Assembly: GCA_963662315.1 (NCBI GenBank)
Contig: OY759353.1
Location: 3,840,001 to 3,904,000 of the forward strand
Length of the DNA: 64,000 nucleotides
DNA from: Geopsychrobacteraceae bacterium
GTDB lineage: Bacteria > Desulfobacterota > Desulfuromonadia > Desulfuromonadales > Geopsychrobacteraceae
Reading direction: 5' to 3'
Numbering within the stretch: position 1 is the stretch's first letter; each line of letters starts with the position of its first letter. The notes under the pieces were generated by a model. That model saw only the letters and a list, made by a program, of their open reading frames with translations, had not been told where the DNA came from and did not search any database. The position numbers and the translations under genes are program-made. Shown here piece after piece: positions 11,787-34,338 of the stretch.

Positions 11787-12776
11787 GTGGGTAGTGAAGC
11801 AAAAATATCTGTCTTCTTCTCATGGCAATCTGATTCTTCTAACAAAACAAACCTTAGCTTGATTGAAGATTGTCTAAAGAAGGCAGTAAAAGAAATTTCT
11901 AAAGAAGAATCAATAATTGTCATCGTTGACAGAGACACAAAGGGGGTCGGTGGAACACCTAGTATAGTTGATGCGATTTTGAAAAAAATAAGAAGTTGCG
12001 ATGTATTTGTATGGGACGCAACGATAATTAACGATATGCCAAGACACACACCAAACCCTAATGTTCTTCTTGAACTTGGATATGCACTTGCAATTGTTGG
12101 GGAAGGGAGAATCATTGGGGTCATGAATGAAGCAAAAGGAAATGGCCCGGAAAAGCTACCATTCGATCTAGTGCATAGGCGTTGGCCAATTCGGTACCAA
12201 CTAGATGATTCTGACCCCAAGTTTGAAGAAAATAAAAAAAACACGAAAAATTTTCTTACAAGTACATTTGCAAGGGCACTCAGAGAAGCCATCAAAGAAC
12301 CCAAAATAGGAGCAGTCCATAGTGACATAGATTTTCTTACTGCGAAGGTTCTTTGGGGGTGCATTAATTCTACATGGGTGCAGAACTGGCTCATGTTTAG
12401 AAAAAACAACATTCAATACGATAAACGTGAATATCGTGACAAACTTGAAGATTATTGCGACATCGCCTCAAAGCCGGAAAATAGCTTTTCTGAAAATACC
12501 CTTGGGGAGTTGCACGGAAATTTGATCAATGCCATTCAGGGGTATCTATGGGCCGCTGCAGTTGAAATGGTTCCCTGTTTTGGCAATGAAGATGCCTACG
12601 TTATCAACGCCAAAGATCAAGCTCGGCAACATGGATGGATTGAGAATTATGACGAAATGTACGATCGACAAGTAGGAGAGCTGAGAAAAGGAATTAATGC
12701 AGTAGAAAATGCGTGGGATCTTTATGTGCAGAGTCTCCGGGTTAAATACCCAGAAATTACCCACGACTTAATGTGA
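11787..12776 (+). CDS. TIR/nucleoside-deoxyribosyltransferase-like domain protein, possible defence gene
   Basis: Motifs VFFSWQSD, DRDT.G..G.P.I, CDVFVWD, PNPNVLLELGYA and LPFDL; AT-rich relative to the flanks. Confidence 0.6.
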   Translation: MGSEAKISVFFSWQSDSSNKTNLSLIEDCLKKAVKEISKEESIIVIVDRDTKGVGGTPSIVDAILKKIRSCDVFVWDATIINDMPRHTPNPNVLLELGYALAIVGEGRIIGVMNEAKGNGPEKLPFDLVHRRWPIRYQLDDSDPKFEENKKNTKNFLTSTFARALREAIKEPKIGAVHSDIDFLTAKVLWGCINSTWVQNWLMFRKNNIQYDKREYRDKLEDYCDIASKPENSFSENTLGELHGNLINAIQGYLWAAAVEMVPCFGNEDAYVINAKDQARQHGWIENYDEMYDRQVGELRKGINAVENAWDLYVQSLRVKYPEITHDLM

Positions 12777-13030: not shown

Positions 13031-13774
13031 GGAGTTCCGGGGACAGTATATAGATCTTTGACAAAGTCTTGTTTCCTGATAGTCTTTTTCTTATGGCAAG
13101 AATAGCACGAGTTATTGCACCGGGCTTGCCCCATCATGTAACGCAACGGGGCAACCGGCGGCAGACGACATTTTTTTGCGATGAGGATTTTCAGATTTAT
13201 ATCGATCTGATGGCTCATTGGTGTGCCAAGTATCATGTGGATATCTGGGCTTGGTGCCTCATGCCAAACCATGTTCATTTAATTGCGGTGCCAACAGATG
13301 AAGCCGGCCTGGCGCGTGCGATTGGTGAAGCGCATAGACGCTATACCCGACATATCAATTTCCGCCATGATTGGCGGGGTCATCTGTGGCAAGAACGTTT
13401 TGCTTCTTTCCCTATGGACGAAGCCTATCTGCTTGCCGCTGCGCGTTATATAGAAATGAACCCTGTCGCTGCAAACCTGGTCTCTGACCTTGGGCAGTAC
13501 CCCTGGAGTAGTGCGAAAGCGCACCTCAACGACCTGGATGATGGTCTGGTGAACCGCGCTCCACTATTGGATCTGGTTTCAGACTGGCAAAGTTTCCTGA
13601 AGTTAAGTAACGAAGAAGAACTGGAGATTTTGCATAAACATGAGAAAACAGGGCGACCACTTGGGAATTTGTCATTTGTTGAAAGTATCGAAGTTCTATT
13701 AGCACGGACATTGCGGCCTCTGCCACCAGGCCCTAAAAAGAATGATTAGTTCTATATACTGTCCCCGGAACTCC
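13031..13774 (+). mobile_element. RAYT-like element copy 1, bounded by 24-bp terminal inverted repeats
   Basis: GGAGTTCCGGGGACAGTATATAGA at 13031-13054 and its reverse complement at 13751-13774; extra 16-bp end copy at 13013-13028. Confidence 0.85.
13093..13749 (+). CDS. Y1 HUH transposase (RAYT/TnpA-Y1 family), copy 1
   Basis: MARIARV..PGLPHHVTQRGNRRQ, HUH motif MPNHVHL, GHLWQERF, catalytic Tyr in RYIEMNPV, YPWSS. Confidence 0.92.
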   Translation: MARIARVIAPGLPHHVTQRGNRRQTTFFCDEDFQIYIDLMAHWCAKYHVDIWAWCLMPNHVHLIAVPTDEAGLARAIGEAHRRYTRHINFRHDWRGHLWQERFASFPMDEAYLLAAARYIEMNPVAANLVSDLGQYPWSSAKAHLNDLDDGLVNRAPLLDLVSDWQSFLKLSNEEELEILHKHEKTGRPLGNLSFVESIEVLLARTLRPLPPGPKKND

Positions 13775-13777
13775 CCC

Positions 13778-13949
13778 CATGAGAAAACAGGGCGACCACT
13801 TGGGAATTTGTCATTTATTGAAAGTATCGAAGTTCTATTAGCACGGACATTGCGGCCTCTGCCACCAGGCCCTAAAAAGAATGATTAGTTCTATATACTG
13901 TCCCCGGAACTCCAGCTATATACTGTCCCCGGAACTCCCCCGGAACTCC
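13778..13949 (+). repeat. Tandem re-copy of the RAYT 3' end plus stuttered right-end repeats
   Basis: 13778-13913 copies 13639-13774 (one mismatch seen); shorter end copies follow at 13916-13938 and 13938-13949. Confidence 0.9.
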
Positions 13950-14058
13950 AGCCAATTTGATAGGCAGCCCCCTTCTCTGGGGTATATCGGTTCGCCCAAA
14001 CACCAAGTCCTCCGTCACTCTGGCCATGCGTAAATGATGGTTTAAGTTTGTTTGGAAC
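13950..14058 (-). pseudogene. Truncated orphan toxin tip beginning at VPN (Tox-REase-5-like start)
   Basis: Manual translation VPNKLKPSFTHGQSDGGLGVWANRYTPEKGAAYQIG, cut by a RAYT end; the DGG.G.W...A.YQ pattern recalls the start of restriction-endonuclease-fold toxins. Confidence 0.5.
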
Positions 14059-14087
14059 ATTTCTTTAGCTTAGAAATGTTCCAAACA
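14049..14087. repeat. Perfect 16-bp inverted repeat containing the cassette site
   Basis: TGTTTGGAACATTTCT-ttagctt-AGAAATGTTCCAAACA. Confidence 0.9.
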
Positions 14088-14090
14088 CAA

Positions 14091-14426
14091 TCAAACCTCT
14101 ACGAACTTATTCCCGCTATCAAAATGTTTAACCAATTCCTGTATTAGAAATTCGTAAACCGAATTTGATGCACTATCCGATGGCAAAAAATAGATTTTAG
14201 ATAAGTAATACCTTTTTCCTAAAGCATCATTAACCAGCTTCAAACCTGAAAGAACTTGGTCCAAAACCTGTGCAGAAGAAGTCCTCGCCTTCAAATCATT
14301 TTTAACATCCCATTCTACGACTTCTACAGCGGTTTCTTGTTCAGAAAAACTAACACCTAGAATGTTATCCTGAGAACCCGTCATCCGAGCAACTTTATAA
14401 ACGTTTCCATCTTTTACAAATTGCAT
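14091..14426 (-). CDS. Putative immunity protein 1
   Basis: 111 aa, translationally coupled (TAATG) to the upstream toxin; AT-rich. Confidence 0.7.
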   Translation of the reverse strand: MQFVKDGNVYKVARMTGSQDNILGVSFSEQETAVEVVEWDVKNDLKARTSSAQVLDQVLSGLKLVNDALGKRYYLSKIYFLPSDSASNSVYEFLIQELVKHFDSGNKFVEV

Positions 14427-15475
14427 TATTCAACCCCCCAAGGAAAACCTCTCCAACGCCAATCAACTCTGTCATGAGCTTTGCTATAACCAGAATCATA
14501 TTTCAACTCATACCACCTTTCGGCAATTTCATGTTTCATCCATGTGATATCGGCGTCAGTATGTGTTCCGCTTTCTAAGCGCTTCCAAGCCTGAGCCTGC
14601 TCTATCGTACTATCAAATCTTCCTACCGTTGCCGGGATACCCTGATCCACATAACGATCCAGTAAATGCTCGTTATAGAAAACGTGATCTTTTACTTTTT
14701 GAATATTTCCAGGTTTGAAGCCTGTACTTGATGCAATTGCAGAAACATCTGAATCACTTGCCCTTATTGCATCATATAGATCATCTGCTGATGCCGTATA
14801 TCCTCCACCACCAGTTTGTTTTAGTGGTGAAGTGTTGTTTGCAATATAGCGACGTATCAGCGCTTGTTGTTCGCCACGCTCCAAACTGGAAATATCTGCT
14901 GGAATCATAATTGAATCAGCCTGATAACGCGAATACCAATTTGCAGCTGCCGCTTTTACTTGTTTATTCGTTTCCTCACCGGATTTCTTATCCGGCTTGG
15001 CCTGTTTTATTTCCTGTTTCTCAGTAGCTTTCAGACCCTGATTGTCCACAGTTTTGACAACATTCCTTGATAAAGATCTCTGCTGGCTGTGGGTTTGCGG
15101 GGCCATGATTTTACTATAAGCAGATGAGACTATTCCCTGCAGGTTTTCATATTGGTTTATTCCTGACAGGCTGGCGACCCAGCGGCCTTTTTGGGGATTG
15201 TTCGGGTAGTCAGGGTCCTGCTGCCAGTAGACGACCCCCAAGAAGGGGAGCTTCATAGAGTAGACGAGGCAGACTTCCATCTTGTCAATTTTTTTTAGCA
15301 GCTCATCAAGCCCCTGTTGATAATTGCGCCACTGGGCAGGAACGAATTCGTTTAGATTATGAATGCTGGTAAAACCGTCACAATAGGCGTCACGGACATC
15401 GTTTTTAGCGAAAAACGGATTGGAAATATACGGCAGGTCAGCAACCGTAATATCTCTGGCAGCAACAAGTCTCAT
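14426..15475 (-). CDS. Polymorphic toxin 1: shared N-terminal domain plus HExxE..AH C-terminal domain
   Basis: First ~130 aa are near-identical to 17662..18798 and 23642..24781; unique tip YDAIR..DV..IA..TG..KDHVF...RFD...AWKRL..G...HEIAE...YSKAH. Confidence 0.75.
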   Translation of the reverse strand: MRLVAARDITVADLPYISNPFFAKNDVRDAYCDGFTSIHNLNEFVPAQWRNYQQGLDELLKKIDKMEVCLVYSMKLPFLGVVYWQQDPDYPNNPQKGRWVASLSGINQYENLQGIVSSAYSKIMAPQTHSQQRSLSRNVVKTVDNQGLKATEKQEIKQAKPDKKSGEETNKQVKAAAANWYSRYQADSIMIPADISSLERGEQQALIRRYIANNTSPLKQTGGGGYTASADDLYDAIRASDSDVSAIASSTGFKPGNIQKVKDHVFYNEHLLDRYVDQGIPATVGRFDSTIEQAQAWKRLESGTHTDADITWMKHEIAERWYELKYDSGYSKAHDRVDWRWRGFPWGVE

Positions 15476-15546
15476 CGGTATCCCCCCTCAAGGATAAAAT
15501 AAGTTGCTATAAGAAATAACTATCTGGAAAGTTTTAATGAGAGGAG

Positions 15547-15574
15547 AGGATAGCGTTTTTTTAGCTTGAGTCAA
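15547..15574 (-). promoter_or_regulatory. Probable sigma70 promoter of the toxin genes (also present upstream of toxins 2 and 3)
   Basis: Minus strand TTGACT-N16-TATCCT; RBS GAGGGGGG before the ATG. Confidence 0.5.
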
Positions 15575-15659
15575 GATGTTTAGCAGGAATTTTAAGGGCG
15601 GTCTTTTCAACTCGGGATCAATTTTCAGAAGTTATCTTAGATAAAATCACATCAAAACC

Positions 15660-15962
15660 GCCGGGTCCCGGCCCGGCAGCCGGATTCATTTTTTCCAGCG
15701 ATGAAAAAACGAATCAAAAAAATCTTTTAAGGTCAAACACACTGACGATAGTCGATTCGGTCTACACTTTATCGTTGCTACCAGCAGTGAACAGCCCGCC
15801 CAACGATGCTATTGCATCCATGGGCAGAACCGAATTAAAGTGAATACATAAAAATGCCAACGGCATTTTTGCGGTTCTGGCCATCAGGCGCGTATTGCGC
15901 TTACTATTTGTCGCCCGCTTGGGACAAATAGTAAGGCGTTGTGCGGGGCGCAACACCGCGAC
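15660..15962. repeat. Structured non-coding repeat, copy 1 (internally deleted)
   Basis: Matches 18983-19368 and 24966-25352 but lacks the segment between TATTGCGC and TTACTATTTG. Confidence 0.85.
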
Positions 15963-15987
15963 CGTGCTTGTTTCATTTCAATCATAG

Positions 15988-16731
15988 GGAGTTCCGGGGA
16001 CAGTATATAGATCTTTGACAAAGACTTGTTGCCTGATAGTCTTTTTCTTATGGCGAGAATAGCACGAGTTATTGCACCGGGCTTGCCCCATCATGTAACG
16101 CAACGAGGCAACCGGCGGCAGACGACATTTTTTTGCGATGAGGATTTTCAGATTTATATCGATCTGATGGCTCATTGGTGTGCCAAGTATCATGTGGATA
16201 TCTGGGCTTGGTGCCTCATGCCAAACCATGTTCATTTAATTGCGGTGCCAACAGATGAAGCCGGCCTGGCGCGTGCGATTGGTGAAGCGCATAGACGCTA
16301 TACCCGACATATCAATTTCCGCCATGATTGGCGGGGTCATCTGTGGCAAGAACGTTTTGCTTCTTTCCCTATGGACGAAGCCTATCTGCTTGCCGCTGCG
16401 CGTTATATAGAAATGAACCCTGTCGCTGCAAACCTGGTCTCTGACCCTGGGCAGTACCCCTGGAGTAGTGCGAAAGCGCACCTCAACGACCTGGATGATG
16501 GTCTGGTGAACCGCGCTCCACTATTGGATCTGGTTTCAGACTGGCAAAGTTTCCTAAAGTTAATTAACGAAGAAGAACTGGAGATTCTGCATAAACATGA
16601 GAAAACAGGGCGACCACTTGGGAATTTGTCATTTGTTGAAAGTATCGAAGTTCTATTAGCACGGACATTGCGGCCTCTGCCACCAAGCCCTAAAAAGAAT
16701 GATTAGTTCTATATACTGTCCCCGGAACTCC
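15988..16731 (+). mobile_element. RAYT-like element copy 2 with 24-bp terminal inverted repeats
   Basis: Inverted repeats at 15988-16011 and 16708-16731. Confidence 0.85.
16050..16706 (+). CDS. Y1 HUH transposase (RAYT-like), copy 2
   Basis: Near-identical to 13093..13749, with a few substitutions. Confidence 0.92.
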   Translation: MARIARVIAPGLPHHVTQRGNRRQTTFFCDEDFQIYIDLMAHWCAKYHVDIWAWCLMPNHVHLIAVPTDEAGLARAIGEAHRRYTRHINFRHDWRGHLWQERFASFPMDEAYLLAAARYIEMNPVAANLVSDPGQYPWSSAKAHLNDLDDGLVNRAPLLDLVSDWQSFLKLINEEELEILHKHEKTGRPLGNLSFVESIEVLLARTLRPLPPSPKKND

Positions 16732-17101
16732 CGGTCAGATAGAGCGGTCGTCGAAAGGCAACGATCTCCATCGCCGCTTTGCAGCGCGGGCAGCGGAACA
16801 CCGGTCGTGATCGCACGGGAATCGGTTCGAGCATGACGCGCAGAACGTACTGTACCAAACGCAGAGTTCTTTTGGCGTTACCGTGCAGAAAACCATAATC
16901 CCGCACCCGGCGAAACCCTTTTGGGAGAACATGCTGGAGGACCAGCCAGAGAAAGTCTTCCCCCTTCAGGGTGAGGGTCTGCTCTTGCTGGGTCTCGCTG
17001 TCGCGATAGCGGAAAGTCACCTTTCCTTTTTGGCAGGAGATGATGTTGTTCTCGGCAATCACACCGCGATAGAGGTAGCGCGACAGATATTTCAGGGCCG
17101 T
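16732..17101 (-). pseudogene. C-terminal fragment of an IS91-family (Y2) transposase
   Basis: ALKYLSRYLYRGVIAE..VTFRYRD..FLWLVLQHVLPKGFRRVRDYGFL..CPRC; RAYT end motifs on both sides. Confidence 0.8.
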
Positions 17102-17116
17102 GGAGTTCCGGGGACA
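17102..17116 (+). repeat. Solo RAYT end motif
   Basis: GGAGTTCCGGGGACA with no transposase attached. Confidence 0.9.
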
Positions 17117-17244
17117 TCCATTTCTTTATTAGTAATCCCTTTTTCCTGCTTGAGGGCCATCAAGGATTCAAACTCTGCGCTTGCCAATGACCTTAGCTGA
17201 TCTGCTTGCTGAGAGTTAACGAGTAGCCTACTGTTTGGAACAAC
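17117..17244 (-). pseudogene. Truncated orphan toxin tip (same tip as 23012-23223, shorter)
   Basis: VVPNSRLLVNSQQADQLRSLASAEFESLMALKQEKGITNKEM begins right after the immunity 2 stop codon and is cut by a RAYT end. Confidence 0.7.
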
Positions 17245-17652
17245 CTACAATTCGATAATCACCTCAGAGTTAAATGATTCAGGCATTTGAAGAAATCTTC
17301 TCCATGCAGTAACTACGGCCTTAAATTCAGCAAGTGAAAATCTTCCTTCTGGCTGCCCAACCCATTCATCATTTACATTTATATCAACTTGAATACCATT
17401 TTGGGAAATTAAGACATCCACGTCATTTCCTTCTATATCAGACTCACTTTCGTGCCCTTCCTCTATCATTTCAACTTCAGCCAATACTCGATCACAATCA
17501 TCAATAGACTGAGCAATGCAACTTAAAATATTGGCGAGATATCGCTGATATCTCGCCACATCCTGACCATCTATAAACTCCTGGCACTGATGATAAACTT
17601 GTCCCAACACAGGATGGTTTCCACCATCAGCATAATAAAGCTTTAACTTCAC
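17245..17652 (-). CDS. Putative immunity protein 2 (cognate to the EndoU toxin)
   Basis: Acidic 135-aa protein starting 9 bp downstream of the toxin stop codon. Confidence 0.72.
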   Translation of the reverse strand: MKLKLYYADGGNHPVLGQVYHQCQEFIDGQDVARYQRYLANILSCIAQSIDDCDRVLAEVEMIEEGHESESDIEGNDVDVLISQNGIQVDINVNDEWVGQPEGRFSLAEFKAVVTAWRRFLQMPESFNSEVIIEL

Positions 17653-17661
17653 ATTGCACCT

Positions 17662-18798
17662 CTAAGGTTTCTTTGGCGTTTGATATACCGGATAAACAGT
17701 TGTTTTTGGTGAAATCCAACCCTCGACTTTGACACCGGAAGGCGTAACTGAAATCCACTTATCACCTTGAACAATCTTATTCGGGTCATTCCAAGCTGCA
17801 TCAACTTCTGTTTTAACACGGATTTCATCCCAACCTTTGGGAAACATCGTATTAGTAGAATTATTGCTAGTCTTAGTTATCCACTGTCCCGGATTCGCCG
17901 GATCGGGAACTTGAATCGTAGCTTTATATACATCTGCAACATCAGGCACCGATTCAGTTCTGGGGACAATTCGGACATCACCGTAGAGCAAAGTATGACC
18001 GCCAGTCGGTTTACCTTTTTTCGTGTAGTCAGCTTTCAATACGTGATCAAAATCTACTGGTGATTGCTGAACGTACTTGTTTGGAACAACTATCTCACCA
18101 GCAGATGATACTACAGGCCCCATCGAAAGTCCAAGCCCAGCTCTCAAACCACCAGCGGTCAACGCTGTGCCAACAACGTCATTTGTCTCAGCAGGCGTCT
18201 GAGAAAGTCGCATGCTGTAGGTACTTGCAAAGTCAGTTTGCTTAAATGCAGTAGCCTCTTGCAATACTTGATCGCCTCTTTCGGTCTCCTCAGGCCTTGC
18301 CATCACCTGCTTCTGGCCCAAAAAATTGCGTCTGCCGCCTTTGACACTGTTCTCAAACCCTTGGTTGACCACCGCTTTGGCTGTGCTGCTTTGCAAAGAT
18401 CTCTGCTGGCTGTGGGTTTGCGGTACCATGATTTTACTGTAAGCAGATGAGACTATTCCCTGCAGGTTTTCATATTGGTTTATTCCTGACAGGCTGGCAA
18501 CCCAGCGGCCTTTTTGGGGATTGTTCGGGTAGTCAGGGGCCTGCTGCCAGTAGACGACCCCCAAGAAGGGGAGCTTCATAGAGTAGACGAGGCAGACTTC
18601 CATCTTGTCAATTTTTTTTAGCAGCTCATCAAGCCCCTGTTGATAATGGCGCCACTGGACAGGAACGAATTCGTTTAGATTATGAATGCTGGTAAAACCG
18701 TCACAATAGGCGTCACGGACATCGTTTTTAGCGAAAAACGGATTGGAAATATACGGCAGGTCAGTAACCGTAATATCTCTGGCAGCAACAAGTCTCAT
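17662..18798 (-). CDS. Polymorphic toxin 2: shared N-terminal domain plus bacterial EndoU nuclease tip
   Basis: After VVPN: DFDHVL..TGGH...K...TMFPKGW...SGVKVEG...TVYP, an EndoU-type H/H/K pattern. Confidence 0.82.
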   Translation of the reverse strand: MRLVAARDITVTDLPYISNPFFAKNDVRDAYCDGFTSIHNLNEFVPVQWRHYQQGLDELLKKIDKMEVCLVYSMKLPFLGVVYWQQAPDYPNNPQKGRWVASLSGINQYENLQGIVSSAYSKIMVPQTHSQQRSLQSSTAKAVVNQGFENSVKGGRRNFLGQKQVMARPEETERGDQVLQEATAFKQTDFASTYSMRLSQTPAETNDVVGTALTAGGLRAGLGLSMGPVVSSAGEIVVPNKYVQQSPVDFDHVLKADYTKKGKPTGGHTLLYGDVRIVPRTESVPDVADVYKATIQVPDPANPGQWITKTSNNSTNTMFPKGWDEIRVKTEVDAAWNDPNKIVQGDKWISVTPSGVKVEGWISPKTTVYPVYQTPKKP

Positions 18799-18982
18799 CG
18801 GTATCCCCCCTCAAGGATAAAATAAGTTGCTATAAGAAATAACTATCTGGAAAGTTTTAATGAGGGGAGAGGATAGCGTTTTTTTAGATTCAGTCAAGAT
18901 ATTTAGCAGGAGTTTTAAGGGCGGTCTTTTCGACTCGGGATCAATTTTCAGAAGTTATCTTAGATAAAATTACATCAAAACC

Positions 18983-19556
18983 GCCGGGTCCCGGCCCGGC
19001 AGCCGGATTCATTTTTTCCAGCGATAAAAAAACGAATCAAAAAAATCTTTTAAGGTCAAACACACTGACGATAATTGATTCGGTCAACGTCTAATCGTTG
19101 CTACCCGTAGTGAACAGACCGCCCAACGATGCTGCGCATCCATGGGCAGAACCGAATTAAAGTGAGTACATAAAAATGCCAACGGCATTTTTGCGGTTCT
19201 GGCCATCAGGCGCGTATTGCGCCGTCGGCCGGCTGGTTAGATGCTGGATGTTCCTTTGGAGAGACGAAGCCCGAGTACGGACCCTTTAAAGAAGGGCGTT
19301 TTGTGCTTACTATTTGTCGCCCGCCTGGGACAAATAGTAAGGCGTCGTGCGGGGCGCAACACCGCGACCTTGCTTGTTTCATTTCAATCATAAAAGACAA
19401 CACCACCGGGTCCCGGCCCGGCAGCCGGATTCATTTTTTCCAGCGATGAAAAAACGAATCAAAAAAAATCTTTAGGTCAAACACACTGACGACAATTGAT
19501 TTTCGGTCTACGCTTATTCGTTGTTACGAGCAGAGAACAGAACGTCTGACGATGCT
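18983..19556. repeat. Structured non-coding repeat, copy 2 (18983-19368) plus partial second unit (19406-19556)
   Basis: CCGGGTCCCGGCCCGGCAGCCGGATTCATTTTTTCCAGCGAT..AAAAAACGAATC recurs after about 420 bp. Confidence 0.85.
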
Positions 19557-21551
19557 GTCGTATCAATAGACAGTGGAAGCTCATGGTCCTAATCCATAAA
19601 TTAACCAAGACTCACCGTTTTGGAGTTGTTGTGGGAGTTCCGGGGACAGTATATAGATCTTTGACAAAGACTTGTTGCCTGCTAGTCTTTTTCTTATGGC
19701 GAGAATAGCACGAGTTATTGCACCGGGCTTGCCCCATCATGTAACGCAACGGGGCAACCGGCGGCAGACGACATTTTTTTGCGATGAGGATTTTCAGATT
19801 TATATCGATCTGATGGCTCATTGGTGTGCCAAGTATCATGTGGATATCTGGGCTTGGTGCCTCATGCCAAACCATGTTCATTTAATTGCGGTGCCAACAG
19901 ATGAAGCCGGCCTGGCGCGTGCGATTGGTGAAGCGCATAGACGCTATACCCGACATATCAATTTCCGCCATGATTGGCGGGGTCATCTGTGGCAAGAACG
20001 TTTTGCTTCTTTCCCTATGGATGAAGCCCATCTCCTTGCCGCTGCGCGTTATATAGAAATGAACCCTGTCGCTGCAAACCTGGTCTCTGACCCTGGGCAG
20101 TACCCCTGGAGTAGTGCGAAAGCGCACCTCAATGACCTGGATGATGGTCTGGAGAACCGCGCTCCACTATTGGATCTGGTTTCAGACTGGCAAAGTTTCC
20201 TAAAGTTAAGTAACGAAGAAGAACTGGAGATTTTGCATAAACATGAGAAAACAGGGCGACCACTTGGGAATTTGTCTTTTGTTGAAAGTATCGAAGTTCT
20301 ATTAGCACGGACATTGCGGAGGGTGTAAAATCCTTTGTGTAAATAGACCCAGTCGGTTACAACCCGTAACCACTGGAGGAACCACAGATGTCTATACCTG
20401 ACGACCTGCTTGATAGCCTGATGAAGGACTACAAAAACCCTGAAGATCTCATTGGGGAAACCGGGCTGCTGAAACAACTGACAAAAAAACTTTTGGAGCG
20501 GGCGATGCAAACCGAGATGACCGATCACCTCGGCTATGAAAAAAACGCTCCGACTACTAATAAATCCGGCAATACTCGTAACGGAAGTTACCAGAAAAAG
20601 ATCAAGGGTGAGTTTGGAGAACTTGATATTTCTGTTCCCCGAGACCGGGATGCCAGCTTTGAACCAGCTATCCTCCCCAAAGGGCAAAGCCGATTTTCTG
20701 GCTTTGATGATAAAATCATCGCTTTGTATGCTCGCGGCATGACCACCCGCGACATCCAGGCACACTTGGAAGAAATCTATGGGGTTGAGATTTCACCGAC
20801 GCTGGTTTCTCAGGTAACCAAGGCTGTTCAGGAGGAGGTTGTTCTGTGGCAGAATCGCCCCCTTGATGATGTTTGGCCAATCGTCTACCTTGATGCTCTT
20901 CGCGTCAAGGTTCGGCAGGATAACCGAGTCATAAATAAAGCTGTCTATCTTGCTGTTGGTGTCAATCTTGACGGCGTGAAAGAGGTTCTAGGCATGTGGA
21001 CTGCCGAGAATGAAGGAGCCAAATTCTGGCTGCAGGTCGTCACCGAATTGAAGAACCGTGGGGTCAAGGATATCTTCATTGCCTGCGTCGACGGACTGAA
21101 GGGATTTCCTGAAGCGATAGAGGCCGTCTTCCCGAAAACGCAGGTTCAGCTCTGCATCGTCCATATGGTTCGGCACAGCCTGAACTACGTCTCTTGGAAA
21201 CAACGCAAGGAAGTCGCTGCCGACTTAAAAACAATCTATTCAGCGGCGACACTGGAGGAGGCTGAGTACCACCTGGAACTCTTCGGAGATAAATGGGATT
21301 CCAGCCATCCTACAATCAGCAAATCATGGCGAAACAACTGGGAGCGGATTACTCCGCTGTTCTCTTATCCGCCAGAGATCCGAAAGGCAATTTACACGAC
21401 CAACGCCATTGAGTCGGTAAATATGTCGTTGAGGAAGGTAATGAAGAACCGAGGTTCGTTCCCCAATGACGAGGCCATGTTTAAGCTGATGTATCTGGCT
21501 TTACAGAATATTGCCAAGAAATGGACAATGCCGATCCGTAACTGGCGATCG

Positions 21552-22849
21552 GGTAGTGTTCAAAATTCTGTGTCAATTCGTTACTATCATCACAACCAAA
21601 GGAATGACACATGACTCAACCCAAAATCACCTTCGATCTAGACGCTGCTCTTGCGGCCTTGCGTGAAGGCAAGGATCTCAACGGCAAAGACGGGATTCTC
21701 ACTCCGCTGATCAAGCAGCTTACAGAAGCCGCCATACAGGCCGAACTTGATGAGCACTTGGCCAATGAGGAAGGCCCGAATCGCAAAAACGGTAAAACGT
21801 CAAAAACAATCAAGTCCCTCTCGGACAGTTTTATTCTTGATACTCCGCGTGATCGCGCCAATACCTTTGAGCCCCAGCTGGTTAAAAAAAATCAGACTCA
21901 GCTTACCGATGAGTTGGAGCGGAAAATCATTGCCCTGTTTGCTCTTGGTACGAGCTATCAGGATATTCGGCAACATGTCTCCGACATGTATGGAATTTCC
22001 GTTTCCAACGGCACAATTAACGCCGTAACCGACAAGCTCTTGCCGGACCTGCAAGCCTGGCGAGAGCGCGATCTTGAAGCGATTTATCCGATCCTCTGGC
22101 TGGACGCTATCCACTACAAGGTCAAGGAAAACGGCCGTTATATCGGTAAGGCGATCTACACCATCCTGGGCCTGAACATCGAAGGCAAGAAAGAGCTTCT
22201 CGGACTCTATCTCTCCGACAATGAAGGGGCACACCACTGGTTAAGCGTTCTTACCGATCTGCATAACCGCGGGGTACAGGACATTTTGATCGCATGTGTC
22301 GATGGCCTCAAGGGTTTCCCCGAAGCTATCGAAAGCATCTATCCGAATACTGAAATCCAGCACTGCGTCATCCACCAGATTCGCAATTCGATCAAGTATG
22401 TAGCCTCAAAGAATCAAAAGGCCTTCATGGCTGATCTGAAGTGTGTCTACAAGGCAGCGACCCTCAACGCAGCGGAGCTGGCTTTGGACGACTTGGAATC
22501 GAAATGGGGTGAGAAGTATCCCATGGTCATTAAGTCTTGGCGCAGTAAATGGCCGACCTTATCCAACTATTTCAAGTACCCCGATTACGTCCGGACAGCC
22601 ATCTATACCACCAATGCTGTGGAGGCGGTTCACCGACAGTTCCGCAAACTGACCAAGACAAAGGGTGGCTTCGCCAATGAAAACAGCTTGCTGAAGCTGC
22701 TTTACGCTGGCATACTCAAGGCCTCCGAGCGTTGGACACATCCGATTCAGAACTGGAATCTGACGCTGGCTCAGCTGACCATCCATTTTCCGGGTCGGCT
22801 GGAAAAACATCTCAGTCTATGAGCCTGACACAGAATCCTGAACACCCTC
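21552..22849 (+). mobile_element. IS256-family element (inner, a different element)
   Basis: Ends GGTAGTGTTCAAAATTCTGTGTCA and TGACACAGAATCCTGAACACCCTC; 8-bp target duplication GGCGATCG at 21544-21551 and 22850-22857. Confidence 0.93.
21611..22822 (+). CDS. IS256-family transposase (intact)
   Basis: Motifs TPRDR, WLDAIHYKV, CVDGLKGFPEAI, QHCVIHQIRNS and YTTNAVE. Confidence 0.95.
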   Translation: MTQPKITFDLDAALAALREGKDLNGKDGILTPLIKQLTEAAIQAELDEHLANEEGPNRKNGKTSKTIKSLSDSFILDTPRDRANTFEPQLVKKNQTQLTDELERKIIALFALGTSYQDIRQHVSDMYGISVSNGTINAVTDKLLPDLQAWRERDLEAIYPILWLDAIHYKVKENGRYIGKAIYTILGLNIEGKKELLGLYLSDNEGAHHWLSVLTDLHNRGVQDILIACVDGLKGFPEAIESIYPNTEIQHCVIHQIRNSIKYVASKNQKAFMADLKCVYKAATLNAAELALDDLESKWGEKYPMVIKSWRSKWPTLSNYFKYPDYVRTAIYTTNAVEAVHRQFRKLTKTKGGFANENSLLKLLYAGILKASERWTHPIQNWNLTLAQLTIHFPGRLEKHLSL

Positions 22850-23011
22850 GGCGATCGGCACTGAATCAGTTTTCGATTATATTTGAAGGGCGGATGCCAC
22901 TGCTCTAACCGACGGGGCATTTACACAATCTGCTTTACACCCTCACATTGCGGCCTCTGCCACCAGGCCCTAAAAAGAATGATTAGTTCTATATACTGTC
23001 CCCGGAACTCC

Positions 23012-23223
23012 TCCGGCATAAAACCTTGTTGATTGTTGCGGTGAATCTGCGAGATTTTTCCTGTTTTCAGATCCATTGCAACGGAAAGTGCAGGCCCCAT
23101 TTCTTTATTAGTAATCCCTTTTGCCTGCTTGAGGGCCATCAAGGATTCAAACTCTGCGCTTGCCAATGACCTTAGCTGATCTGCTTGCTGAGAGTTAACG
23201 AGTAGCCTACTGTTTGGAACAAT
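23012..23223 (-). pseudogene. Truncated orphan toxin tip (possibly a YwqJ-like deaminase start)
   Basis: IVPNSRLL...KEMGPALSVAMDLKTGKISQIHRNNQQGFMP follows the immunity 3 stop codon and is cut by a RAYT end. Confidence 0.6.
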
Positions 23224-23642
23224 CAATTATTTACATTCAAACACGATGGAATTTTTCCGTTTGTCTTTAAAAAGCTTAAACATATTTCGCGAACAGTCTC
23301 TATATCATCAATTAAGCTCCGATCATTCTGAAATTGTCCCAATATAGCGATATTTTTAGCATCTTTATCTGGGTTATATAATCGGTAAATTAATCGATCT
23401 CCTTCAGAGTCAACTTCGCTACATTCCACATAACATTTCCCTGCATCACAACTTACGTTAAGACTGCATTCGCCAGGCTCATCTTCCTCTCCTTTCCAAA
23501 GGGATAGAAAGCCATTATTTGAGTACACCGAATCTAACCGTGCAAAAACTTCTCTTTCAGTTGGATTTTTCAGCATTGTACTTTGGTTCCGTTCTCCAGA
23601 GGGTGAATAAACAAACCCTCCTATGCTCAGTTGTTCGATCAT
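23223..23642 (-). CDS. Putative immunity protein 3 (cognate to the deaminase toxin)
   Basis: 139 aa, TAATG-coupled to the toxin; NPT..EV...L and DDIETVREIC..F pattern is reminiscent of Imm1-like proteins. Confidence 0.72.
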   Translation of the reverse strand: MIEQLSIGGFVYSPSGERNQSTMLKNPTEREVFARLDSVYSNNGFLSLWKGEEDEPGECSLNVSCDAGKCYVECSEVDSEGDRLIYRLYNPDKDAKNIAILGQFQNDRSLIDDIETVREICLSFLKTNGKIPSCLNVNN

Positions 23643-24781
23643 TATTCAGCCTTTGACTTAATAATTTTAAACTTGCTCATACCTGGCTCCCAATAATAAG
23701 TTTTCGGGAGGCCCGTTTTATTACTTAAAGAACGAACAGTTAAACTAGTGTATTCGTCTTTAATTGCAGCTTGCACAAGATCTTTTTGGCAAAAACCACA
23801 AACATCAAGACCATCTACATCCATTACAACATTTGAACCTTTCCCAACACCGGAATTTCGAATTTGCTGAGCCACTCCGATTTCAGCATGAGCATTTGCC
23901 ATATTGCTATTTGGATACCCACCTTCTCGTAGAGGTTTAGCCTCAACGAATTCTGAAATAAACGTTTTCTGATTCGCATCCGCTCCCAATCTAAGAGTTG
24001 GATTGATATCTTCAAATAGTTGATCGCCTACTTTTGCTCGAGCTCTAACAGATAATTCAGTGTTTGGAACCACTCTTCCACCAGCAGATGATACTACAGT
24101 CCCCTTCGAAAGTCCAAGCCCAGTTCTCAAACCACCAGCGGTCAACGCTGTGCCAACAACGTCATTTGTCTCAGCAGGCGTCTGAGAAAGTCGCATGCTG
24201 TAGGTACTTGCAAAGTCAGTTTGCTTAAAAGCAGTAGCCTCTTGCAATACGTGATCGCCTCTTTCGGCCTCCTCAGGCCTTGCCATCACCTGCTTCTGGC
24301 CCAAAAAATTGCGTCTGCCGCCTTCGACACTGTTCTCAAACCCTTGGTTGACCACCGCTTTGGCTGTGCTGCTTTGCAAAGAGGCCTGCTGGCTGTGGGT
24401 TTGCGGTACCATGATTTTACTGTAAGCAGATGAGACTATTCCCTGCAGGTTTGCATATTGGTTTATTCCTGATAGGCTGGCGACCCAGCGGCCTTTTTGA
24501 GAATTGTTCGGGTAGTCAGGGTCCTGCTGCCAGTAGACGACCCCCAAGAAGGGGAGCTTCATAGAGTAGACGAGGCAGACTTCCATCTTGTCAATTTTTT
24601 TTAGCAGCTCATCAAGCCCCTGTTGATAATTGCGCCACTGGGCAGGAACGAATTCGTTTAGATTATGAATGCTGGTAAAACCGTCACAATAGGCGTCACG
24701 GACATCGTTTTTAGCGAAAAACGGATTGGAAATATACGGCAGGTCAGCAACCGTAATATCTCTGGCAGCAACAAGTCTCAT
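23642..24781 (-). CDS. Polymorphic toxin 3: shared N-terminal domain plus cytidine-deaminase-like tip
   Basis: After VVPN: zinc-deaminase motifs AHAEIG and DVCGFC. Confidence 0.82.
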   Translation of the reverse strand: MRLVAARDITVADLPYISNPFFAKNDVRDAYCDGFTSIHNLNEFVPAQWRNYQQGLDELLKKIDKMEVCLVYSMKLPFLGVVYWQQDPDYPNNSQKGRWVASLSGINQYANLQGIVSSAYSKIMVPQTHSQQASLQSSTAKAVVNQGFENSVEGGRRNFLGQKQVMARPEEAERGDHVLQEATAFKQTDFASTYSMRLSQTPAETNDVVGTALTAGGLRTGLGLSKGTVVSSAGGRVVPNTELSVRARAKVGDQLFEDINPTLRLGADANQKTFISEFVEAKPLREGGYPNSNMANAHAEIGVAQQIRNSGVGKGSNVVMDVDGLDVCGFCQKDLVQAAIKDEYTSLTVRSLSNKTGLPKTYYWEPGMSKFKIIKSKAE

Positions 24782-24965
24782 CGGTATCCCCCCTCAAGGA
24801 TAAAATAAGTTGCTATAAGAAATAACTATCTGGAAAGTTTTAATGAGAGGAGAGGATAGCGTTTTTTTAGCTTGAGTCAAGATGTTTAGCAGGAATTTTA
24901 AGGGCGGTCTTTTCAACTCGGGATCAATTTTCAGAAGTTATCTTAGATAAAATCACATCAAAATC

Positions 24966-25539
24966 GCCGGGTCCCGGCCCGGCAGCCGGATTCATTTTTT
25001 CCAGCGATAAAAAAACGAATCAAAAAAATCTTTTAAGGTCAAACACACTGACGATAGTCGATTCGGTCTACACTTTATCGTTGCTACCAGCAGTGAACAG
25101 CCCGCCCAACGATGCTATTGCATCCATGGGCAGAACCGAATTAAAGTGAATACATAAAAATGCCAACGGCATTTTTGCGGTTCTGGCCATCAGGCGCGTA
25201 TTGCGCCGTCGGCCGGCTGGTTAGATGCTGGAGGTTTCTTTGGAGAGATGAAGCCCGAGTACGGACCCTTTAAAAAAGGGCGTTTTGTGCTTACTATTTG
25301 TCGCCCGCCTGGGACAAATAGTAAGGCGTTGTGCGGGGCGCAACACCGTGACCGTGCTTGTTTCATTTCAATCATAAAAGACAACACCACCGGGTCCCGG
25401 CCCGGCAGCCGGATTCATTTTTTTCCAGCGCTGAAAAAACGAATCAAAAAAATCTTTAAGGTCAAACACACTGACGATAATTGATTCGGTTTACGTTCTA
25501 TCGTTGCTATCAGCAGTGAACAGACCGCCCAACGATGCT
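24966..25539. repeat. Structured non-coding repeat, copy 3 (24966-25352) plus partial second unit (25390-25539)
   Basis: Same multi-hairpin sequence as 18983-19556. Confidence 0.85.
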
Positions 25540-25784
25540 GTCGTATCAATAGACAGTGGAAGCTCATGGCCCTACTCCATAAATTAACCAAGATTCACCG
25601 TTTTGGAGTTGTTGGGTAAATAATATCTCAAAAGAGTCAGAGATTGGTCAGAAATCACCTATATAATGGATTAATTGGCAATATGAGAAGCCTGATCGAA
25701 GACTTTCATTCGGTGGGCATTAAAATTTTTAATATTATATGTGAGGTGTAGAGATTCATGGGATTCAGGTTTTTCTACAGACTC

Positions 25785-32557: not shown

Positions 32558-34338
32558 GACTGAGCTCCATGTTGCTGAACGTGTTTGCTGCTGCCGGCCA
32601 GGGCAATAAAGGCGTCTTCAATGGTCGGGTCGGGGGTCGCTGCGGTCGTGACCAGGGCCCGGATTTCAGCCGGTGTCCCCTGAGCCAGTTCCCTGCCGTG
32701 CGCCATGATCAGCATACGGTCACAGTATTCGGCTTCTTCCATGAAGTGGGTGGTTACGATGACAGTGACCCCCTGCTGGGCGAAACTGTTGATACGCAGC
32801 CAGAATTCGCGCCGCGCCAGCGGGTCGGCTCCCGAGGTCGGCTCATCGAGGAAGAGAATCGCTGGTTCATGGAGCATGGCGGTTGCCATGGCTAATCTTT
32901 GTTTAAAACCACCGGGCAGGTCTCCGGCTGGCATCGCACTGCGCTCACGCAGATCAAACTCGTCCAGCGCCCAGTCCAGCCGCAGACTCAGGTGTTTGCC
33001 ATGCAGCCCATAGGCCTTGCCGTAAAAGGTCAGGTTGTCTTTGACACTGAGCTGGCGGTAGAGGGAAAATACCTGGGCCATGTACCCCAACTGGCTGCGC
33101 GCTTTGGAGGGTGCCCGGCGCAGATCCCGGTCGGCAACGCGGATGTCACCGCTGCTGGCCTTGCTTAAACCACAGAGCATACGGAAAGTGGTTGTTTTTC
33201 CGGCCCCGTTGGGACCCAGCAGACCGAATATTTCACCACGGTGAACATCAAAACTGATCCCACTGACAGCGTTAAAATCACCGAATTTCTTTCCCAGATC
33301 GCGAACTGTAACGACCACCTCATTGCGCGCTGTCGTGCTGATAGCGGTCCTGGTCTCAGGATGGTTGGTCAGTCTGTGAGCAGTCATGTCCATAAATGCA
33401 TCTTCAAAACAGGGCAAGTCAGCTGTCACTGAATGATAAGTATTTGCGGGAATAAGCTGAGCAATGGGTTGATCATAATCGGCGCTGATAACACAGCGGA
33501 CCCGGCCGGACCTTATGGTGGCATCTCTGACGGTTGGCTGTGTCGCCAGCAGGGTTTGCAACTGACGGTTGCGGTTATTTTCCAGGGCAGTGAAACTGTA
33601 GACGCGGCCTTTGACTGCCTGGCGTAAATCTGCAGGATTCCCCTGGGTCAACACGTGCCCTTGCTGCAGGACGACGACCTCGTCGCAGTGTTCGGCTTCA
33701 TCCAGGTATGAGGTGGCGACCAGTACTCCAATACCGGCTCCGTGGACCAGTTGTTCGATAATTGTCCACAGCTCCCGGCGCGAAACCGGATCAACTCCGA
33801 CAGTCGGTTCGTCTAACAGCAGCAGTTGTGGTGCTTTGATCAGGGCACAGGCCAGTCCCAGCTTCTGTTTCATTCCGCCGGAGAGTTTGCCGACCCGGCG
33901 TTGTGTGAAAGCCGCCAGATCGGTCATATCCAAAAGTCGGGCCTGCTGATGACGGCGCTGTTCTTTGGCAACCCCCTGCAGATCGGAAAACAGGTCGAGG
34001 TTTTCCTGCACCGTGAGGTCCTGGTAAAGACCGAACTGTTGCGGCATATAGCCGACCAGCTCCTGGATGACCAGCGACTCGCTGGCGCAGTTATGTTCGA
34101 GAACACTGATTGCGCCAGAGCTTGGCAACAGCAGCCCGGCAGCCAGGCGCAGCAGGGTTGTTTTGCCCGCTCCATCAGGGCCAACCAAGCCGGTGATCCG
34201 GTTACCGGCGACGTTTATGGAAATGTGATCCAGAGCGCAGACCAGCTGCTGTTTTTTCGGGATAAAGGTTTTAACCAGATCGACGGCCTGCAATGCCCAT
34301 GGTGGTTTGATTTCCGGCGGTATGGCATGCGCGCTCAT
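32554..34338 (-). CDS. Duplicated ABC ATPase (YbhF-like)
   Basis: Two Walker A motifs (GPDGAGKT, GPNGAGKT) and LSGGMKQK. Confidence 0.9.
   Translation of the reverse strand: MSAHAIPPEIKPPWALQAVDLVKTFIPKKQQLVCALDHISINVAGNRITGLVGPDGAGKTTLLRLAAGLLLPSSGAISVLEHNCASESLVIQELVGYMPQQFGLYQDLTVQENLDLFSDLQGVAKEQRRHQQARLLDMTDLAAFTQRRVGKLSGGMKQKLGLACALIKAPQLLLLDEPTVGVDPVSRRELWTIIEQLVHGAGIGVLVATSYLDEAEHCDEVVVLQQGHVLTQGNPADLRQAVKGRVYSFTALENNRNRQLQTLLATQPTVRDATIRSGRVRCVISADYDQPIAQLIPANTYHSVTADLPCFEDAFMDMTAHRLTNHPETRTAISTTARNEVVVTVRDLGKKFGDFNAVSGISFDVHRGEIFGLLGPNGAGKTTTFRMLCGLSKASSGDIRVADRDLRRAPSKARSQLGYMAQVFSLYRQLSVKDNLTFYGKAYGLHGKHLSLRLDWALDEFDLRERSAMPAGDLPGGFKQRLAMATAMLHEPAILFLDEPTSGADPLARREFWLRINSFAQQGVTVIVTTHFMEEAEYCDRMLIMAHGRELAQGTPAEIRALVTTAATPDPTIEDAFIALAGSSKHVQQHGAQS

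Follow-up and report, generated by a model that had tools for sequence, protein, structure and literature searches.

The window analysed here is a stretch of 64,000 nucleotides (nt) from the genome of a Geopsychrobacteraceae bacterium (contig OY759353.1, positions 3,840,001 to 3,904,000). Between about 12.9 and 25.7 kb it carries three tandem toxin units on the minus strand. Each unit consists, in this order, of a common 5' region, a toxin gene, a small gene, a start-less tip fragment and an opposite-strand element of 745 nt with a transposase associated with repetitive extragenic palindromic (REP) sequences, RAYT. The toxins, T2 in unit 1, T3 in unit 2 and T4 in unit 3, begin with a common domain of 134 residues, which we call the N-domain and which has no Pfam match, and the ATG of each gene is preceded by a G-rich ribosome-binding stretch. 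The C-terminal tips of the toxins vary, and the small gene behind each of them is a putative immunity gene. An earlier note on this DNA had read tip and immunity gene as a cassette bounded by a short DNA site. We find that these units are indeed real cassettes, bounded in frame by a DNA motif of 10 nt.

Toxin units and cassette boundaries in the genome

The motif reads TGTTTGGAAC on the plus strand of the window and GTTCCAAACA in the reading direction of the toxins. The five plus-strand copies on which the earlier note was built, at 14049, 17232, 18078, 23211 and 24061, are all present, and there is a sixth, which it had missed, on the opposite strand at 14078. The expected number of copies in the window is 0.11, and none of 100 shuffles reached six. 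Across the genome the 10-mer has 17 copies where about 9.5 are expected, eight of them at toxin junctions or orphan starts, and the 9-mer GTTCCARAC has 104 copies (about 72 expected), of which 12 lie at toxin loci. The feature is real and non-random.

How the motif relates to the cassettes can be seen from units 2 and 3, which have near-identical flanks around unrelated inserts, as the earlier note had described and self-BLAST confirms. The upstream flanks are 95% identical (18078-19631 and 24061-25614) and the downstream flanks 99% identical (17118-17243 and 23097-23222). The inserts between them, an EndoU tip with its immunity gene (17244-18077) and a Deam_C tip with its immunity gene (23223-24060), measure 834 and 838 nt, which corresponds to a motif-to-motif spacing of 846 and 850 nt. 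Since the two units are alike outside the motif and unrelated inside it, both cassettes are bounded by the motif on both sides. The Val-Pro-Asn (V-P-N) frame of the toxin junction returns behind the immunity genes, where it opens a start-less orphan tip, again in agreement with the earlier note. In unit 1 the motif lies 32 nt past the immunity stop, in units 2 and 3 the distance is 2-3 nt.

For unit 1 the earlier note had proposed a motif-bounded insert of 787 bp, and here the left side does not lie at the motif. The homology of this unit to units 2 and 3 ends at 15072, at about residue 134 of T2, and the next 35 or so residues are common only to T5, a paralogue elsewhere in the genome. As T2 leaves the common sequence at this point, the left edge of its insert is not motif-bounded. 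The T2 cassette is one-sided, with a left break within the carrier homology and a right end at the V-P-N of the displaced tip. The variant TGTTTGCAAT at 14836 does exist, but it plays no part as a breakpoint: it lies inside the unit 1 tip and the homology ends elsewhere, which rules out the 'YIAN' site as the T2 junction.

The genome, a single contig of 4.71 Mb with 48.9% GC, encodes eight paralogues of these toxins (T1-T8) of about 340-400 amino acids (aa). Their N-domains are 94-100% identical, and their tips are EndoU, Deam_C, RNAse_A_bac, Colicin-DNase/WHH or unclassified. Such variable C-terminal tips behind a conserved N-terminal region are characteristic of polymorphic toxins, and so are the orphan cassettes of tip and immunity gene downstream of the toxins. 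T1, T3, T4, T6 and T7 have a common linker of 100 residues that ends in VVP(N/D), T2 and T5 have another, shorter linker in common, and T8 diverges at about residue 155. Within the long linker (residues ~185-215) the stretch F.STYS.RLSQTPA is similar to the beginning of the WHH/colicin-DNase tips in T8 and in protein P0052, and this linker may be what remains of an earlier tip.

An open reading frame (ORF) of 93-139 aa stands behind each of seven toxins; the open frame behind T8 is longer, with up to 173 aa. Six orphan tips, of which five are distinct (T1o, T2o, T3o = T4o, T6o and T7o), start exactly at (V)VP(N/D). They do so 2-32 nt past the immunity stop, with the exception of T6o, which an IS110 insertion has set apart from the immunity gene. 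T6 to T8 form a second toxin island (genome 4206272-4213098), where IS110-family transposase genes and a further repeated element are found beside the T6 and T7 orphans.

Table 1. Features of the toxin island, in window coordinates (IS, insertion sequence; Y1 and Y2, transposase types).
Feature	Position	Strand	Basis and remarks
Toxin T4, 379 aa	23642..24781	-	N-domain 1-134, long linker, VVPN junction, Deam_C (deaminase-like) tip at residues 242-372 (PF24241, E 3e-36); paralogue alignment
T4 junction motif GTTCCAAACA (V-P-N + A)	24061..24070	-	
Putative T4 immunity gene, 139 aa, DUF6911	23223..23642	-	PF21852, E 1e-13; directly behind the toxin
Unit 3 motif copy, start of orphan tip	23211..23220	-	2 nt past immunity stop
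Unit 3 orphan tip fragment (VPNSRLLVNSQQ...)	23012..23220	-	without own start codon; ended by REP/RAYT end
Toxin T3, 378 aa	17662..18798	-	T4-type carrier, VVPN junction, EndoU nuclease tip (PF14436, E 3e-12)
T3 junction motif	18078..18087	-	13 nt, GTTGTTCCAAACA, counting the preceding codon
Putative T3 immunity gene, 135 aa	17245..17652	-	relatives 81-91% identical accompany the EndoU tip elsewhere
Unit 2 motif copy, start of orphan tip	17232..17241	-	3 nt past immunity stop (TAG gtt GTTCCAAACA)
Unit 2 orphan tip fragment	17118..17241	-	99% identical to that of unit 3; ends at 17118
Toxin T2, 349 aa	14426..15475	-	common N-domain, short linker as in T5, unclassified tip, no VVPN junction
Putative T2 immunity gene, 111 aa	14091..14426	-	assigned by position
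Inverted motif pair	14039..14097	.	perfect 16-nt arms, 7-nt spacer; between immunity stop and orphan tip
Unit 1 orphan tip fragment (VPNKLKPSFTHGQ...)	13948..14058	-	ended by REP repeats
Common 5' region of toxin units (repeats, ribosome-binding site)	24782..25614	-	copies at 18799-19631 and, shorter, in unit 1 at 15476-15986
RAYT (Y1 transposase) element, 745 nt	15988..16732	+	PF01797; adjoins the unit, no role in exchange implied
Further RAYT copies	13031-13775; 19634-20319 + 22945-23011		second of these split by IS
Two tandem IS256-family transposase genes	20388..22822	+	inside RAYT copy 3; PF00872, E 4e-123 and 9e-92
Y2 (IS91-type) transposase, C-terminal fragment	16709..17062	-	beside unit 2 orphan; PF04986, E 9e-19

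Upstream of each toxin gene lie repeat families of 77-111 nt (15653-15986, 18976-19631 and 24959-25614). A GC-rich hairpin with a T run behind it is among them, and further copies of these families occur at other toxin loci as well as in the rest of the genome. The remaining genes of the window are housekeeping and efflux genes, and none belongs to a type VI secretion system (T6SS). Just outside the toxin island an ORF of 329 aa (11787-12776, plus strand) matches the CAP12/Pycsar TIR effector domain weakly and below threshold (E 2.5e-4; 21.5 bits, cut-off 24.7), and it may be a defence gene.

The motif across genomes and carriers

We sought further copies of the T3 cassette with its immunity protein and an alignment of the EndoU tip. 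The cassette of EndoU tip and immunity gene was found in four contexts, namely T3 of the window, a metagenome contig (L009), Motiliproteus sp. MSK22-1 (L011) and a Cellvibrionaceae metagenome-assembled genome (L013). In a DNA alignment the four copies are 87-93.5% identical within the cassette, whereas the three copies whose sequence extends upstream have unrelated flanks there, the likeness beginning at GTTCCA(A/G)ACA. At the other end all four read ...TAG GTT GTTCCAAACA past the immunity stop and then continue into four different next tips, which in L009 and L013 are intact and have their own immunity gene. Breakpoints scattered away from the motif would have told against the exchange site proposed in the earlier note; this alignment places them on the motif in independent genomes, which favours a DNA-level site. 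Intact pairs of orphan tip and immunity gene are also found at L135 and L142.

The same cassette, truncated by an IS, occurs on a further metagenome contig of 8405 nt (L010) within a classical Rhs orphan array, where the immunity protein is 81% identical and the Rhs orphans retain about 100 residues of the Rhs core up to DPLGL. That the EndoU tip retains the same partner (81-91% aa identity) in L009, L010, L011 and L013 suggests that the small genes behind the tips are immunity genes. L010 also has a tip 'KKLTVQLDRLR...', which recurs as a VPN cassette in another genome (G570, locus L134). Since the same tips are found in Rhs-type and VPN-type arrays, cassettes move between junction types as well. 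An immunity and tip piece of about 91% identity from an algae metagenome (X1, depth ~3.6) loses its likeness at 17243 and has no motif beyond.

For an analysis of codon use we took the 18 junctions that had been found without the motif as a probe, 11 from this genome and seven from L009, L011, L013 and L068. All 18 read GTT CCA AAC or GTT CCA GAC. Base +10 is A in 17 of them, across the next residues K, S, T, N and R (with Ser always AGY), and the codon before the motif is GTT or GTG in 13. In the genome as a whole the shares of these codons are 0.39 for GTT, 0.19 for CCA, 0.45 for AAC and 0.36 for GAC, and of 293 VP(N/D) tripeptides in ORFs of at least 300 aa, 14 use the motif codons, five of these being toxins. 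Two VPD tripeptides inside the EndoU tip even vary synonymously among the same four copies. The synonymous positions of the motif are thus invariant across genera, where free variation would have favoured a constraint on the protein alone. As the motif codons are fixed while VP(N/D) elsewhere uses others, the comparison indicates that the motif is constrained at the DNA level. As the single variable base yields either Asn or Asp, VP(N/D) may in addition have a role in the protein, for example as a processing site.

The junction is not limited to the N-domain carrier. In a protein-level survey of EndoU tips, in which 12 of 39 matches were read, VP(N/D) stands directly before the tip on three further unrelated carriers (P0015, P0018 and P0019). 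From the locus survey we dropped L047, L048, L049, L052 and L053, whose matches lack the tip start; the match at L013 lacks it too, but the downstream site is present there. In 400 genomes of the window's own class the 13-mer gave 22 single matches, not above the backwards control, and the 23 loci read in this class, one of them the T1 orphan of the genome itself, contained no further toxin junction. Among 19 site regions read, a further region being upstream context, only L068 is a toxin junction. In 400 genomes from the order of Motiliproteus we found clustered 13-mer pairs in G570 (two contigs), G699 and G579, with a spacing of 0.93-1.03 kb, and arrays at single motif matches also in G686, G498 and G718. 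Seven of the 15 regions read in this order are arrays (L134, L135, L136, L137, L139, L142 and L143), and the other eight (L138, L140, L141 and L144-L148) are ordinary ORFs or non-coding. The arrays found by the motif have the layout of a VP(N/D)-tip of 130-190 aa, an immunity gene, a VPN-tip and so on, with Tox-SHH, CdiA_C and Col-Pyo DNase among their further tips. Unrelated carriers stand at the same junction in L136, a LysM protein, and in L137, for which hhalign gives a probability of 0.3% of relationship to the N-domain.

Two other occurrences were set aside. GTTCCAAACA is also found in a T6SS sheath-region gene, at 33477 of this genome and in L059 (G061), where it is read as F-[EQ]-VPN; this is a conserved coding coincidence and no junction. 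The genome site 4230644/4231404 resembled a degraded array, and was dropped as no coding context was found.

The N-domain itself has few relatives. It was not found in any of 60 related genomes, and a set of 5.8 billion proteins contained it only in the proteins of this genome and in one metagenome protein (P0008), which has a CHAP and peptidoglycan-binding tip. When 1.84 billion representatives were searched in full with HMMER, five further, weak relatives appeared, of which one has a PT-TG pre-toxin domain, and 300 other genomes from the order of G061 gave two weak members, neither with a VPN junction. The Motiliproteus array is headed by a distant member of 26% identity. An AlphaFold2 model of the domain, based on an alignment of 11 rows, was too poor for a comparison of folds (mean pLDDT 50.3, pTM 0.39). 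These searches define the N-domain as a rare, unnamed family of N-terminal carriers.

As for secretion, TssC, Hcp and five VgrG genes are present in the genome, which has a single T6SS. In G579 a VPN-type toxin on another carrier has hcp-vgrG on one side and a PAAR gene on the other, and a VgrG-like fragment is found downstream of the Motiliproteus array. We read the locus as a tandem set of genes for polymorphic toxins directed against bacteria, which are probably type VI secretion cargo.

How the cassettes might be exchanged

Tip and putative immunity gene make up a cassette of about 0.85 kb, and cassettes are strung together as motif, tip, immunity gene, motif, next tip and so forth. GTTCCARACA supplies the codons for Val-Pro-Asn/Asp and one base more, with which the following codon begins. 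The first tip alone is fused to the carrier and would be expressed; the downstream tips have no start codon and would be silent. We suggest that the motif acts as an in-frame crossover point, alone or with longer homology on one side, and a crossover would either fuse another tip to the carrier or insert or displace a cassette. Host pathways such as homology-facilitated illegitimate recombination, or template switching between short repeats, could bring this about, and a dedicated neighbouring recombinase would not be required. As the motif is the sole sequence common to unrelated carriers and cassettes, recombination would use the motif and at the same time keep it identical.

On balance we lean, with no great conviction, towards host-mediated recombination at the motif as the process that joins the cassettes. 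It is favoured by the lack of any enzyme linked to the arrays, and the T2 locus suggests a carrier-anchored event. Moreover, exchange within a family can use long flanks, and strong selection for new types of toxin and immunity can fix even very rare events. Orphans that have only the motif in common are also not without precedent. Some orphans of contact-dependent growth inhibition (CDI) have nothing in common with the main gene beyond the VENN-coding sequence (Poole 2011, PMC3150448), and start-less class 3 mafB-CT cassettes begin at a WDWVKN motif (Jamet 2015, PMC4287609), so the premise of the earlier note that CDI orphans normally retain longer homology was too strong. For modules of the Vibrio cholerae T6SS, homology-facilitated illegitimate recombination has been proposed (Kirchberger 2017, PMC5361080).

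There are several points that weigh against this reading. The 10-13 identical bases are far below the usual requirement of RecA-dependent exchange, and random microhomology joining alone would not hit the same site every time. Three of the eight paralogues (T2, T5 and T8) break away from the motif. Seven of ten EndoU proteins lack a VP(N/D) junction, the carriers without the motif including Pyocin_S, Rhs, FHA and PAAR-like proteins, and among 38 loci the junction was found only in L011, with 36 lacking the motif. The presence of the same cassette in the Rhs array of L010 indicates that cassettes move by other routes too. None of the five VgrG genes adjoins a toxin in this genome, and the codon analysis leaves out the arrays that were found via the motif. 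Finally, no exchange event was observed. Public read runs were examined as assembled Logan contigs, in which rare variants are not detectable. A joint from 17243 to 18078, which skips 834 nt, was rejected as a deletion, as the 943-nt contig fits the unit 3 cassette with its flanks, and the gap in the coverage by X5 at 17895-18078 carries no weight as evidence.

The earlier note had considered an integron- or shufflon-like mechanism. In such a dedicated site-specific system a recombinase encoded elsewhere would recognise GTTCCARACA and excise and insert cassettes in frame, possibly as circles. Precision and the use of one 10-mer across carriers are its best arguments: the breakpoints lie exactly at the motif, on both cassette sides and in four contexts, the 10 nt are invariant including synonymous and out-of-codon positions, and the same site stands on unrelated carriers. 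In addition, two of 35 junction sites (T2o at 14039-14097 and L143a) are accompanied by a second, inverted copy, perfect and no more than 30 nt away, against a chance expectation of about 2e-4 per site, and this resembles a two-arm core site. These inverted pairs could be either the scar of a template switch or a two-arm recombinase site. In L143 (G718:C123, about 1744 on the minus strand) the second copy lies within tip coding sequence, where the homologous L009 tip has four mismatches. The other 33 sites are single half-sites without symmetry and have no inverted partner (fewer than two mismatches, within 100 nt) of the kind expected for attC, and a 10-nt site is short for a known recombinase. 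The motif copies within an array are direct repeats on one strand with no recombinase nearby, which does not fit a shufflon. As the earlier note had remarked, there is no tyrosine or serine recombinase among the scanned ORFs of the window. The genome has ten tyrosine (PF00589) and three serine recombinase matches, none of which lies within 100 kb of any of the eight toxin loci. The ORFs that surround the arrays in Motiliproteus, G579, G699, G686 and G498 contain no such gene either, and no IntI-type recombinase was found beside the array. No excision product was seen, though the assembled contigs could not show rare ones. Three of the eight paralogues break elsewhere. There is no evidence for an enzyme of the proposed kind, and we consider a dedicated system unlikely. 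We would call it equally improbable that GTTCCARACA is the site of a trans-acting recombination system across marine and aquatic Gammaproteobacteria, which would load cassettes onto any carrier ending in the site. If true, it would amount to an integron that serves protein C-termini, in which unrelated delivery domains draw on one pool of cassettes.

Another possibility is that the constraint is on the protein only, VP(N/D) being a processing or linker signal for tip release, the DNA identity being inherited from recently common carriers and cassettes, and the orphans arising in the ordinary way by displacement of C-termini, as in Rhs and CDI. The variable base gives the chemically similar Asn or Asp, known junction motifs such as VENN, DWVKN and VKYDT end in N or D too (PMC3150448, PMC4287609), Pfam tip domains start just past the motif, and the identity of cassettes from different genera, 87-96%, points to recent transfer. 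It is difficult to reconcile with this explanation that all 18 independent junctions, with some 15 unrelated tips, use one codon set of about 3% background share, that base +10 is conserved across five different next residues and that the upstream identity of the orphans is always 10-13 nt and never of variable length; we judge it quite unlikely. The cassettes might also be moved by local mobile elements, that is by the HUH transposases of RAYT (Y1) or IS91-type (Y2), as the window holds three RAYT genes and a Y2 fragment besides the two IS256-family genes. Each of the three units has a RAYT element downstream of it, and this island accounts for three of the four full copies in the genome (the fourth is at 3420170); the element has inverted ends of 27-30 nt. 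The Y2 fragment abuts the unit 2 orphan; the IS91-type Y2 family inserts next to GTTC, with which the motif starts. However, no RAYT copy was found at the other five toxin loci of the genome, which led us to reject it as the main driver. As its ends moreover cut the orphans at different points, RAYT seems to be a later settler. The arrays of other genomes show no such elements, and L011, L013 and L137 suggest exchange without Y1 or Y2. The cassettes carry no element ends or hairpins and the Y2 gene is only a truncated fragment, which makes this last explanation very improbable.

Whichever pathway is at work, the swapping of tips has so far been explained mainly by analogy: in Rhs and CDI it is put down to homologous recombination, in T6SS modules 'perhaps' to homology-facilitated illegitimate recombination. 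The present analysis narrows the exchange point to one invariant 10-mer on several unrelated carriers in several genera, and this provides a clean, testable substrate. It also defines a pool of about 15 or more tips, several without family assignment, which can be found by a motif scan.

Comparison with known toxin and cassette systems

In the literature searched, the supplements of the cited papers excepted, we found no description of a VVPN junction. The closest parallels are with systems in which tips are exchanged behind a conserved carrier. CDI systems likewise have a short junction motif, a variable tip with its immunity gene, start-less orphans downstream and IS among the orphans (PMC3150448). 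In contrast to the CdiA proteins of several thousand residues with CdiB, however, the carrier here is a 134-aa domain in a protein of about 340-400 aa. The motif is VP(N/D) and not VENN, several unrelated carriers use it, and the upstream identity is minimal (10-13 nt) in every orphan instead of variable. No Pfam domain of two-partner secretion or FHA-repeat CdiA, of CdiB or of PT-VENN was found in the eight toxins or their neighbours. The class 3 MafB toxins of Neisseria (Jamet 2015) are also small secreted polymorphic toxins with start-less tip arrays that begin at a short motif and with an immunity gene behind each tip, and their exchange was also inferred from genome comparison (PMC4287609). 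They differ in motif and taxa; no DUF1020 (there is no Pfam match on residues 1-240) or signal peptide was detected in our toxins, and the invariance of the motif across genera and carriers is measured here at the DNA level.

Rhs systems have in common with the present arrays that modules of tip and immunity gene are displaced downstream and can be reused (Koskiniemi 2014, PMC3967940), and the EndoU cassette and the 'KKLT.QLDRLR' tips occur in Rhs arrays (L010) as well as in VPN arrays (L134). But the Rhs orphans of L010 keep about 100 core residues, ample for RecA, whereas VPN orphans keep three to four codons. The toxins have no Rhs Pfam match, neither YD repeats nor DPxGL, and an Rhs context was seen only in L010 and L139. 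In the T6SS of V. cholerae new modules displace old ones downstream, and the authors point out both a resemblance to integrons and the absence of an integrase (PMC5361080). According to the same account the old effector is lost, only immunity genes pile up and the breakpoints lie at no fixed motif (PMC5361080). Here, in contrast, whole units of tip and immunity gene persist at one fixed 10-mer.

In integrons, cassettes of about 0.5-1 kb that have no promoter follow one another in a single direction; only the proximal one is expressed, and a repeated site separates the cassettes. The toxin arrays resemble this layout, including the repeated site, as known from IntI/attI/attC arrays (PMC5361080). 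They differ in that there is no integrase and no palindromic attC, and in that the site lies within a reading frame and fuses protein parts. Compared with all of these systems, the locus is most likely a polymorphic-toxin orphan-cassette array with a rare carrier, in which the junction is unusually sharp, is conserved in its DNA sequence and is used across carriers.

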